Shown here: positions 18,001 through 21,000 of the stretch, piece after piece
Layout of the letters: the number at the start of each line of letters is the position of its first letter
How positions within the stretch are numbered: the first letter of the stretch is position 1
NCBI RefSeq assembly: GCF_003334405.1
Contig: NZ_QOWM01000002.1
Length of the DNA: 64,000 nucleotides
Direction: 5' to 3' (one strand)
Source: Escherichia coli
GTDB lineage: Bacteria > Pseudomonadota > Gammaproteobacteria > Enterobacterales > Enterobacteriaceae
Position numbers: made by a program

Positions 18001-21000
18001 ATTATCATAGGGCTGTTTATTGCATGCTTATTAGCATCCCCGTTTTGGATTTTCCTTGCTATAGGTAGCTTTATCGATAACCAACGCGGTGCAACATTAA
18101 GTAGTACTTTGGATCCGGCTACAGGTGTCGATACCTCGGAATTAGCAAGATTATTTAACCTTTTCTCTGCTGCGGTTTATCTTACTAAAGGTGGAATGAA
18201 CTTTATTCTGGAAACTCTTTGGCAAAGTTATAATTTATGGCCTTCAGGCAATTTTAATTTTCCTAAATTAGAGCCTTTATTCTCATATATTAATAACATA
18301 ATGACTCATACTATCGTTTACGCAAGCCCCGTGATTGCCGTTATGCTGGGCGGTGAGGCTGTCCTGGGATTGCTGGCACGTTATGCTTCACAACTAAATG
18401 CTTTTGCCATTTCACTGACTGTCAAAAGTGCGCTGGCATTTTTAATATTAATTATTTATTTTGGCCCAATACTGGCTGAACGAGTAATGCCGTTATCCTT
18501 TTTCCCAGAACAATTGCAACTATACATTGAGAAATAGAGTGTTTCATGGCCAATAAAACTGAAAAGCCAACACAAAAGAAACTCCAGGATGCTTCTAAAA
18601 AAGGGCAAATTCTAAAAAGTAGAGACTTAACCATCTCTGTAATAATGCTTGTGGGTACTTTATATCTCGGATATGTTTTTGATGTGCATCACATTATGTC
18701 GATTCTTGAATACATCCTTGATCATAACGCTAAACCAGATATTTGGGACTATTTTAAAGCTATGGGGGTTGGTTGGTTGAAAACGAACATTCCTTTTTTG
18801 CTGGTTTGCATGTTCACAACAATACTTGTCTCCTGGTTTCAAAGTAAAAAGCAATTAGCAACTGAAGCTGTTAAATTTAAGCTTGATTCATTGAATCCAG
18901 TAAATGGCTTAAAGCGTATATTTGGCTTAAAAACCGTAAAAGAATCTGTTAAAGCAATTCTTTATATTATTTTTTTTGCATTGGCGATCAAAGTATTTTG
19001 GAGTAATCATAAATCACTGCTTTTTAAAACTCTTGATGGAGATATCATATCTTTATTATCAGATTGGGGAGAGATGCTATTCCTTCTCATACTGTATTGT
19101 CTCGGCAGTATGATAATTGTCTTAATTTTTGATTTTATCGCTGAATATTTTTTATTTATGAAAGATATGAAAATGGATAAACAAGAAGTTAAAAGAGAAT
19201 ACAAGGAGCAAGAAGGAAATCCAGAAATTAAGTCTAAACGCAGAGAGCGCATCAGGAAATTCTTTCTGAGCAATTGAAGTCTGATGTCAGTAATAGTCGT
19301 TTGATGATTGCCAACCCTACTCACATTGCAATAGGGATATACTTTAAGCCACATCTTTCACCTATTCCATTGATTTCTGTAAGAGAAACTAATGAGGTAG
19401 CCTTAGCCGTAAGGAAATATGCAAAGGAAATCGGAATACCAATTATCACAGATAAAAAATTAGCACGAAAAATTTATGCTACCCATCGTCGCTACGATTA
19501 TGTTAGCTTCGAAAATATAGATGAAATATTACGTCTTCTGCTGTGGCTTGAAGATGTGGAGAATGCTGGACAACCTGTTCCAGATGAACAGCTCTCTTCA
19601 GAAGATAAATTCATTGAAGGTGAAGAGAAAGAAATCGAGAATAAAGACGATAATTTAAAAAATTAAACATCTGTCGTAGTCAGAAATTTATAAGAATCTA
19701 CACGCAAAAACCGTGTAGATTCATTATTTAATGAGTTAAATGATCTTGTGAAATGACAAGCAATTGATACATACTCATCTCTTTATAAGCTGGAACTGTA
19801 GTAACCTGTGCAAATTCGCGATATAGCTTTTGCTCCAGTTCTGCTGTAGATATATATTCCGGGTGTTCGCTAAAGAACTGTCTTGCATCTACTATCGCTT
19901 GGGATTCGCCACTTCTTTTATTTTGATACTCCTTTAATGAATTTTCTCTGGTGCATGCAGAGAGCAACGATATCAGCGCGATGGTTATTATGATTTTACT
20001 ATTATATCCTACTAATGACATATCAACTTTCTCTTACGCAAGATTGGAGTTTAAAATAATGTTTATCCCATTCACAGAGTGCTATAAACAACTCAACAGT
20101 ACCTTTTATGTTAAGTTTATTTAGGGCTCTTATTTTGTGATATGATACTGTTTTATAATCAATTCCTTTAATAATGGCTACTTGTTTTAACGAGTAAGAA
20201 ACACATAACCGCAGGATATCTATATCATCATGGGTAAGTGCTTCTTGTGTGGAATACACATTTTGTGTATGAAGATTCGAAATCAGGAAATGCGTTAAAT
20301 CAGATAATCTAATATTCTTATTGATCCTGATGAAATTGTTGCTTAAAAGGATGTTTACAGGTTCTGTATTTGGTTTGAGATTTCGATGTTGATGCTCATC
20401 AATAACAACGAATGAATGCCCAAGATCAACCAACGCAACTAAATCGCTGTAATATTCTTTTTGGGATGCTAATAATGCATTAGTGACTACAGTGAAGTAG
20501 ACATCACTGGAAAAGACTTGCATATGCCAACCTGTACTCTAAAATCATTTAGGGTAAATATTACGTGTAAAAGTTAAAATAAGAGTAATTGTTATATTTG
20601 CTTAACATTGGGGGAATAGGGTTTATACCTTAAATTGTAAATAAAGTTATGCATAGAGGCATTTAAAATAGTCCTCGAAATTATAATTTTTTATTCTGTG
20701 TCATCATATTTTGGTCATGAAATTTCCGTCTTGTTACACTACTCTAAACTAGAGCTTATGGAATTAGCGGGTGCTATTCATGGAAAATAATGATAAATTC
20801 TTATCACAAGACTTATTGGAATCTTATGCCATTCGTTTGTTGAGCGGACCATTGAATGGATGCGAGTATGAAATACTTAATGGGCGTCTACTTGTTATCA
20901 TTGGTAATGATGTTTCGTTAGGAAGAAGTGATGCTTTTTCTGAGTTACCAGAAAACACAATAGTCGTTCCTTATGGCGAGCTTACAGGTAGTTTTGAGAT

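Follow-up and report, generated by a model that had tools for sequence, protein, structure and literature searches.

etrA and an InvH-family pilotin gene form a conserved two-gene module in the ETT2 island of Escherichia coli

The etrA–invH-like gene pair

The window analyzed here, a stretch of 64,000 nt from Escherichia coli (RefSeq assembly GCF_003334405.1, contig NZ_QOWM01000002.1), carries the island of ETT2, the second type III secretion system of E. coli, in its common deleted form at the tRNA-Gly (glyU) site. Two genes of this island lie next to each other on the minus strand, flanked by the convergent gene epaS and the divergent gene eprH. The upstream gene, etrA (20023..20523), begins with ATG and encodes a full-length LuxR/GerE-type regulator of 166 amino acids (aa). 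The downstream gene (19728..20021), called from its open reading frame (ORF) and from profile searches, also begins with ATG and encodes a 97-aa lipoprotein of the InvH, or pilotin, family; we refer to it as the invH-like gene.

The junction between the two (20019..20025, minus strand) reads ...GAA AGT TGA T ATG TCA..., with the etrA stop codon at 20025..20023, a single spacer base at 20022 and the start codon of the invH-like gene at 20021..20019. A preliminary description of this DNA had put 2 nt between stop and ATG; the close adjacency stands, with one intervening nucleotide as the exact figure, and the ORF list and the sequence confirm a 97-aa ORF with a lipobox where that description had placed it. 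A junction of this kind is the anatomy that would be expected for co-expression. Pairing of the invH-like gene with the anti-Shine-Dalgarno sequence is weak in the window allele (-2.9 kcal/mol), and this weakness together with the 1-nt junction fits a reliance on ribosomes that terminate at etrA.

The arrangement recurs outside the window. A divergent Escherichia lineage (L013/L014), whose 20-kb island looks intact, encodes a pilotin 84% identical to that of the window, and exactly one base again separates etrA from a 97-codon invH-like gene. The TGA-T-ATG layout is kept across alleles differing at 13% of nucleotides. In E. albertii, the last 23 nt of etrA are shared with the gene for a 98-aa InvH-like lipoprotein (lipobox FLSA-C), which is preceded by a GGAG Shine-Dalgarno site of -6.4 kcal/mol, compared to -2.9 kcal/mol in the window. 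etrA and the invH-like gene constitute a conserved two-gene ETT2 module. With near-touching stop and start codons, a weak ribosome-binding site of its own for the second gene and a conserved layout, the pair would also fit the anatomy of translational coupling.

A terminator scan found no terminator-like hairpin between etrA and the invH-like gene; the sole one follows the second gene, where an 11-bp hairpin (19694..19722, not assigned to a strand) separates the invH-like gene from the convergent epaS. It starts 5 nt past the invH-like stop codon and folds with -17 kcal/mol on either strand; the alleles of O157 and of strain 3426 have it too. Upstream, etrA and eprH diverge from an AT-rich intergenic region (20524..20779, not assigned to a strand) that is a candidate, presumed promoter region. 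It holds a single sigma-70-like site (20571..20544, minus strand), and no promoter could be called in the promoter scan, which returned four sigma-70-like sites against a mean of 7.2 in shuffled sequence. An Rfam scan of 18500..21500 returned nothing relevant and no small RNA like InvR, which in Salmonella adjoins invH.

EtrA had been described as intact, and we agree: the window protein has the length, start and stop of EtrA from O157:H7, from which it differs by eight substitutions, and it retains a GerE/LuxR helix-turn-helix (HTH) domain (20086..20238, minus strand; residues 96-146; Pfam PF00196, E 4.7e-5). The O157:H7 Sakai protein (ECs3720), listed as a 501-bp gene in a review table (PMC3977695), occupies the same island position. 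Homologues have 170 aa in the divergent Escherichia lineage and 174 aa in E. albertii, with the same start or a similar length; the E. albertii protein is 57% identical to EtrA. The N-terminal 95 aa of EtrA have no family match in profile searches (Pfam, NCBIfam) or in PDB, where the weak matches are confined to HTH domains such as those of VraR and GerE, and the NCBIfam models FimZ, NarL and UhpA match the C-terminal HTH only, far under their cut-offs. Pfam gave no Response_reg match, so EtrA is not assigned to the receiver-domain regulators of the NarL/FixJ type. EtrA reportedly acts on loci beyond the island, for example as a repressor of LEE (the enterocyte effacement locus) in O157:H7 (PMC10877973), and the window EtrA may still regulate genes elsewhere, as reported for that strain.

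The 97-aa product and the InvH family

The N-terminus of the 97-aa product, MSLVGYNSKIIITIALISLLSAC, matches the core lipobox pattern, with Cys23 as the lipidation site and Thr at position +2. The predicted type II signal peptide (19953..20021, minus strand) ends in the lipobox L-S-A-C23, and its hydrophobic region has a mean Kyte-Doolittle value of 2.4. The lipobox Cys is invariant in a 16-member InvH family alignment. There is an auxiliary PROSITE rule that we take to require a Lys or Arg within the first seven residues; the window allele fails it, its first Lys being at position 9. A common allele with the substitution G5R does carry Lys or Arg within the first seven residues. Judged from these sequence features, the lipoprotein signal of the 97-aa ORF appears to be real.

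The remainder of the protein places it in the InvH pilotin family. Pfam InvH (PF04741) matches residues 26-91 over its full length (model positions 1-81 of 81) with E 1.4e-29 and 102.8 bits, well above anything that chance would give, and the NCBIfam model of the InvH C-terminus aligns to the C-terminal half of the ORF (E 1.3e-7). When PDB sequences were searched with phmmer, only the Salmonella InvH pilotin (6XFK, 6XFJ/6XFL) was returned, with E ~6e-7 over residues 44-95. Structure prediction agrees. An AlphaFold2 (AF2) model built from the 16-sequence family alignment has a pLDDT (predicted local distance difference test) of 95-98 over residues 41-97, which form a C-terminal helical pilotin domain (19731..19901, minus strand) according to AF2 and Foldseek. 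In a Foldseek search of PDB, the InvH entries 6xfj, 6xfk and 6xfl were the top and only confident matches (probability 1.00). The model superposes on the InvH chain of the InvH-InvG complex with a root-mean-square deviation (rmsd) of 0.9 Å over 59 columns at 36% identity, and target-normalised template modelling scores were 0.80-0.88 for two crystal structures and 0.60 for 6xfl. The residues conserved in the family (F49, F50, P54, E55, Y56, L66, F70, Y85 and L88) are all found in the window protein.

The preliminary description had held that no function could be assigned to this lipoprotein from sequence, a view that the Pfam, NCBIfam, PDB and fold matches refute; RefSeq already names the product "invasion protein" (WP_000060555.1). 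The RefSeq protein differs from that of the window at residue 32 only, with Asn in RefSeq and Tyr in the window. This codon (19926..19928) lies in the linker and encodes Asn in the otherwise identical PK6 and Survcare045 alleles and in most others, and Tyr32 may reflect either a private mutation or a difference in sequencing.

When 1.84 billion representatives were searched exhaustively with HMMER, only 27 matches were returned, 13 of which are relatives at ~30-50% identity. Relatives have 82-148 aa, mostly ~90-117 aa, and all share the lipobox Cys, a short linker and a domain of the form FFxEHPEY...SMYQLL. A length of 97 aa is therefore typical of the family, and the 147-position NCBIfam InvH model is among its longest forms. 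Six of the eight non-Escherichia members for which contigs were examined adjoin type III secretion system (T3SS) genes of the SPI-1 (pathogenicity island 1 of Salmonella) type, effectors or effector-like genes.

On a 7-kb contig with no T3SS gene (Logan ERR11172695, 92..1460), the gene for a distant 99-aa InvH-family lipoprotein has a 36-aa ORF and the gene for a 271-aa GerE-type regulator upstream of it, and a chaperone-usher fimbrial operon follows. A lineage shared by this regulator and EtrA was considered and rejected, as the two have no detectable similarity (E 3.7); sequence comparison indicates that the two regulator-pilotin pairings are probably independent. Elsewhere (L008 5008..8294, and L009), a 97-aa InvH-family gene product, 38% identical, is encoded beside genes for glycoside hydrolase family 15 and a GhoT/OrtT toxin, and these genes are ringed by IS66 fragments. 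The left end of full-length ETT2 islands has this gene pair too, flanking eivF, with a gene order that differs from that of L008. Finally, the one contig confirmed in a scan of public genomes, 5 kb long (CABHOW010000183.1) and part of a metagenome-assembled genome (MAG) labelled "uncultured Flavihumibacter sp." (Bacteroidota), encodes an ORF 99% identical to the window product; E. coli DNA has almost certainly contaminated this MAG bin.

The secretin gene, the island and its alleles

The candidate partner of the pilotin is the ETT2 secretin, EivG. In islands that retain eivG, the C-terminus of EivG, DELLQKWIKTYLNR, aligns to residues 543-556 of InvG (DDKLQKWVRVYLDR) and carries an InvG-like C-terminal helix motif, LQKW..YL.R, the InvG helix being the one to which InvH binds. 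The alignment of the same EivG residues to the InvG peptide chain of the InvH-InvG entry 6XFL is weak (E 1.3). The secretin adjoining another InvH-family member has the tail FLHKWVRDYLSR. Secretin and invH-like genes occur together in the eivG-retaining islands of O157:H7, strain 3426, strain F374 and L013/L014. The E. albertii locus likewise has both eivG and the invH-like gene, with eivE and eivA uncalled. The E. albertii EivG tail (L020 20454..20525; LLQKLVKTYLNR) has Leu in place of the Trp of LQKW in E. coli EivG and Salmonella InvG.

The window has lost this gene. Searching all 64 kb by tblastn with the proteins of a full-length island (L018) gave no eivF, eivG, eivE, eivA, eivC or eivI; epaO, epaS and an EivJ remnant (15777..15893) were matched. 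The secretin tail motif LQKW..YL.R is in no frame of the window. The deletion scar (14112..15893, plus strand) consists of ygeQ, a hypothetical ORF and a 39-aa C-terminal eivJ remnant, with eivF/G/E/A/C/I missing, and the annotation of strain PK6 agrees on the deletion of the eiv genes. The segment 13000..27000 matches PK6 and many other strains as identical.

From the scar onward the gene order is ygeQ, the hypothetical ORF, the eivJ remnant, epaO, epaP, epaQ, epaR, epaS, the invH-like gene, etrA, eprH, eprI, eprJ, eprK, orgA, orgB, etrB/ygeK and an iagB-like gene. Five of these are broken: epaO (frameshifted according to the Prokaryotic Genome Annotation Pipeline, PGAP), epaS, orgA and the iagB-like gene (frameshifts), and etrB/ygeK (internal stop). 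The epaS (SctU) pseudogene (18546..19666, plus strand) has a frameshift near 19250, which leaves two ORFs and tblastn matches in two frames; PGAP flags it as "frameshifted" in the near-identical PK6. Many ETT2 structural genes of a size similar to that of the regulator are also intact in the window. eprH (20780..21961) is intact in the window and in PK6, and it is annotated as frameshifted in Survcare045 (99.9% identical here) and in O157:H7. Because eprH lesions differ among near-identical strains, lesions of the island are recent and lineage-specific. Synonymous divergence (dS) between the window (16833..23297) and L014 is uneven, rising from 0.09-0.17 for epaP/Q/R through 0.23 (eprH) to 0.35-0.44 for eprK, etrA and the invH-like gene, a sequence pattern that suggests recombination within ETT2.

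Of 5426 complete E. coli genomes surveyed for the gene pair, 3088 have the 1.2-kb region, with coverage of at least 80% in 3022. Junctions were typed with queries of 41-42 nt that were counted as matching only if the central bases were identical. The window-type junction, GTAGGATAT, is carried by 2080 genomes, and a second type, GTAAGATAT, in the same frame and encoding G5R, by 467; the coupled frame is thereby kept in 2547 of 2983 junction-typed genomes. The other 436, O157:H7 included, carry GTAATGATAT, which has a 1-nt insertion relative to GTAAGATAT. The insertion falls right after the coupled ATG and leaves a six-codon mini-ORF (MSLVMI-stop), with no ATG, GTG or TTG for the lipoprotein before its hydrophobic region. 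We located this allele in O157:H7 strain H2495 (L004 14394..14424) and in strain 3426 (L005 14394..14424), equivalent to 20006..20010 of the window; PGAP annotates an 88-aa "invasion protein" there, starting from an ATC codon. Protein databases also hold many singleton frameshifted or truncated versions of the invH-like product.

eivG DNA is found in 984 genomes, so that about two thirds of the carriers of the region are secretin-less, like the window, and ~2000 complete genomes have the invH-like gene without eivG. A one-to-one tie between junction allele and eivG presence was considered and failed, as a strain with the G5R allele (L73) also lacks eivG.

etrA itself is broken in part of the population. 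A nonsense change, E144* (GAG to TAG, 20092..20094), is present in 669 genomes, O103:H2 among them, compared to 2379 with GAG (~22%). It ends the gene 69 nt early and cuts off the last helix of the HTH domain. In both examples examined (L007 and L019), the downstream lipoprotein ORF is intact. It had been proposed that regulators are kept in an otherwise decaying island. etrA is indeed intact here; selective keeping holds in part only, given E144* in 669 genomes and the many structural genes that are intact too.

A regulator-pilotin pair without a secretin gene

We consider it likely that etrA and the invH-like gene are a conserved ETT2 regulator-pilotin bicistron, whose pilotin is orphaned and probably idle in this window and whose regulator is possibly still active. 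Where the island is intact, Sec would export the pilotin, Cys23 would be lipidated and, with Thr at +2, the outer membrane would be its destination. The helical domain of the pilotin would then dock onto the C-terminal helix of EivG, and the bound pilotin would help EivG to arrive in the outer membrane and to assemble there, the part played by InvH for InvG in Salmonella. Ribosomes that finish etrA would initiate the pilotin and so tie its synthesis to the regulator. In the window, eivG and five neighbours are gone; without eivG, the pilotin would have no client and would most likely be a still-intact leftover. From the sequences compared, the most economical reading of the ORF is that it encodes the pilotin of EivG and that its client has been lost here, the presumed binding to EivG being modelled on the InvH-InvG complex.

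Some observations weigh against this reading. The NCBI InvH equivalog model NF011869 aligns to the C-terminal 55 residues only and reaches 31.8 bits where the cut-off is 305, which makes the ORF a family member rather than an equivalog of Salmonella InvH. Its linker from lipid anchor to domain falls ~50 residues short of that in the NCBIfam InvH model (147 positions). An AF2 model of a fusion of pilotin domain, linker and EivG tail gave a helical tail, with a pLDDT of 86 and then 69, and no interface readout. Our literature search found no paper that tested co-transcription or coupling of etrA and the invH-like gene. In addition, among eight E. coli alleles the pilotin gene has 11 synonymous and 13 non-synonymous changes, a ratio of non-synonymous to synonymous rates (dN/dS) of 0.31 that lies below neutral expectation (P = 0.006), and such constraint within E. 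coli could reflect continued use.

This last point leads to an alternative that we regard as unlikely, namely that the pilotin has a second, secretin-independent job kept by selection, in the envelope, in adhesion, or in setting the level of EtrA through a shared mRNA. The ~2000 genomes that retain the gene without eivG would fit such a job, as would the coupled start retained by most typed genomes and the conservative nature of the changes in the C-terminal domain (T59S, Q64E, V89I/L and H94R). In Yersinia, the pilotin SctG is mobile and suffices for assembly at low level, and it has been proposed to have extra roles and to influence the regulator with which it is co-transcribed (bioRxiv 10.1101/2022.02.14.480308). 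Selection is a poor witness here, however. The dN/dS of etrA among the same eight alleles is 0.22 (19 synonymous and 16 non-synonymous changes), and relative to the divergent lineage the values are 0.18 for the pilotin gene (20 synonymous, 17 non-synonymous) and 0.24 for etrA; yet eprH, epaR and eprK, which have lesions in some of the strains compared, show ratios that are equal or lower. We therefore rejected dN/dS as a test of present function: since broken ETT2 genes score just as low, the values reflect a functional past and say little about present use without a secretin, and the signal probably predates the decay of the island. A target of 294 bp also easily escapes lesions, and the start codon is lost in the 436 genomes with the insertion, O157:H7 among them, besides the many singleton broken versions in the databases. 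A narrower form of this idea, in which the pair survives in the ~2000 secretin-less genomes through an outer-membrane role tied to EtrA (an envelope-state signal, or EtrA output through the shared mRNA), seems to us quite unlikely; if it were true, a "cryptic" island would still supply a working two-gene regulatory unit.

Whether translation of the two genes is linked is a separate matter, and adjacency without translational coupling would be compatible with the rest of our preferred explanation. The invH-like gene would then use start signals of its own or not be expressed, and the 1-nt gap would simply reflect a compact island. E144* ends etrA 69 nt early and leaves the lipoprotein ORF intact in the two strains examined, the Shine-Dalgarno site that belongs to the E. 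albertii gene is a good one, and there are weak sigma-70-like matches within the 3' end of etrA. Promoter-like matches do not rise above the shuffled background, no hairpin separates the genes, and the weak Shine-Dalgarno site of the window together with a TGA-T-ATG layout maintained despite 13% nucleotide divergence argue the other way; we regard an uncoupled pair as doubtful.

A reading in line with the preliminary description, in which an uncharacterised lipoprotein unrelated to secretion acts as a partner of EtrA at loci outside the island, appears highly improbable. Adjacency and likely co-expression are all that speak for it, along with the reported action of EtrA on LEE (PMC10877973). 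Sequence, profiles and fold all identify an InvH-family pilotin, and most of the relatives examined adjoin T3SS genes or effectors. Moreover, O157:H7, the very strain in which the effect of EtrA on LEE was shown, has a start-less lipoprotein allele, which implies that the LEE activity of EtrA does not need the lipoprotein.

The pilotin resembles that of Salmonella SPI-1 (6XFJ, 6XFK and 6XFL) in belonging to PF04741, in its outer-membrane-type lipobox and in its helical C-terminal domain, and the ETT2 secretin shares the InvG-like helix motif. It differs from Salmonella InvH in its length and far shorter linker, in its score below the equivalog cut-off, and in its position after a LuxR-type regulator gene in the stretch from epaS to eprH, whereas the classical gene lies beside invF-invG (as seen in L017). 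The secretin gene, too, is absent from the window. The arrangement has a parallel in Yersinia yscW/sctG-virF(lcrF), where pilotin and T3SS transcription factor are also encoded side by side on one strand, off the structural operons; Pseudomonas exsB-exsA is another pilotin-regulator operon. The YscW and ExsB pilotins have a fold that differs from that of InvH. Unlike in the yscW-virF type, the regulator here comes first and the pilotin second, the regulator is of the LuxR/GerE rather than the AraC type, and a 1-nt stop/start junction takes the place of an intergenic RNA thermometer. Placement of a pilotin gene beside a T3SS regulator has been described as conserved for pilotins (bioRxiv 10.1101/2022.02.14.480308).

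While databases already classify the ORF as InvH-family, the ETT2 literature that we consulted has missed it. One review states that invH is absent from ETT2, and its Sakai table is empty between etrA (ECs3720) and epaS (ECs3721) (PMC3977695); a 2020 review of SPI-1 leaves the ETT2 cell of its invH row blank (PMC7232297), and a 2024 review of ETT2 names no pilotin (PMC11068852). In O157:H7 the pilotin gene is start-less through the 1-nt insertion and eivG is kept, whereas the window has the coupled ATG and has lost eivG. It is plausible that InvH was overlooked in ETT2 owing to the start lesion in O157:H7, the first-annotated strain.

The invH-like gene is an ordinary member of a known family; it brings a modest correction to the ETT2 literature and no surprise in mechanism. 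In the window, the lipoprotein most likely represents what is left of a secretion system that has been dismantled, rather than a new regulatory partner. Where the start is coupled and the island intact, deletion of etrA may also abolish pilotin synthesis, and EtrA phenotypes could be partly polar. Recognising the pilotin completes the parts list of intact ETT2, as found in E. albertii and some E. coli.

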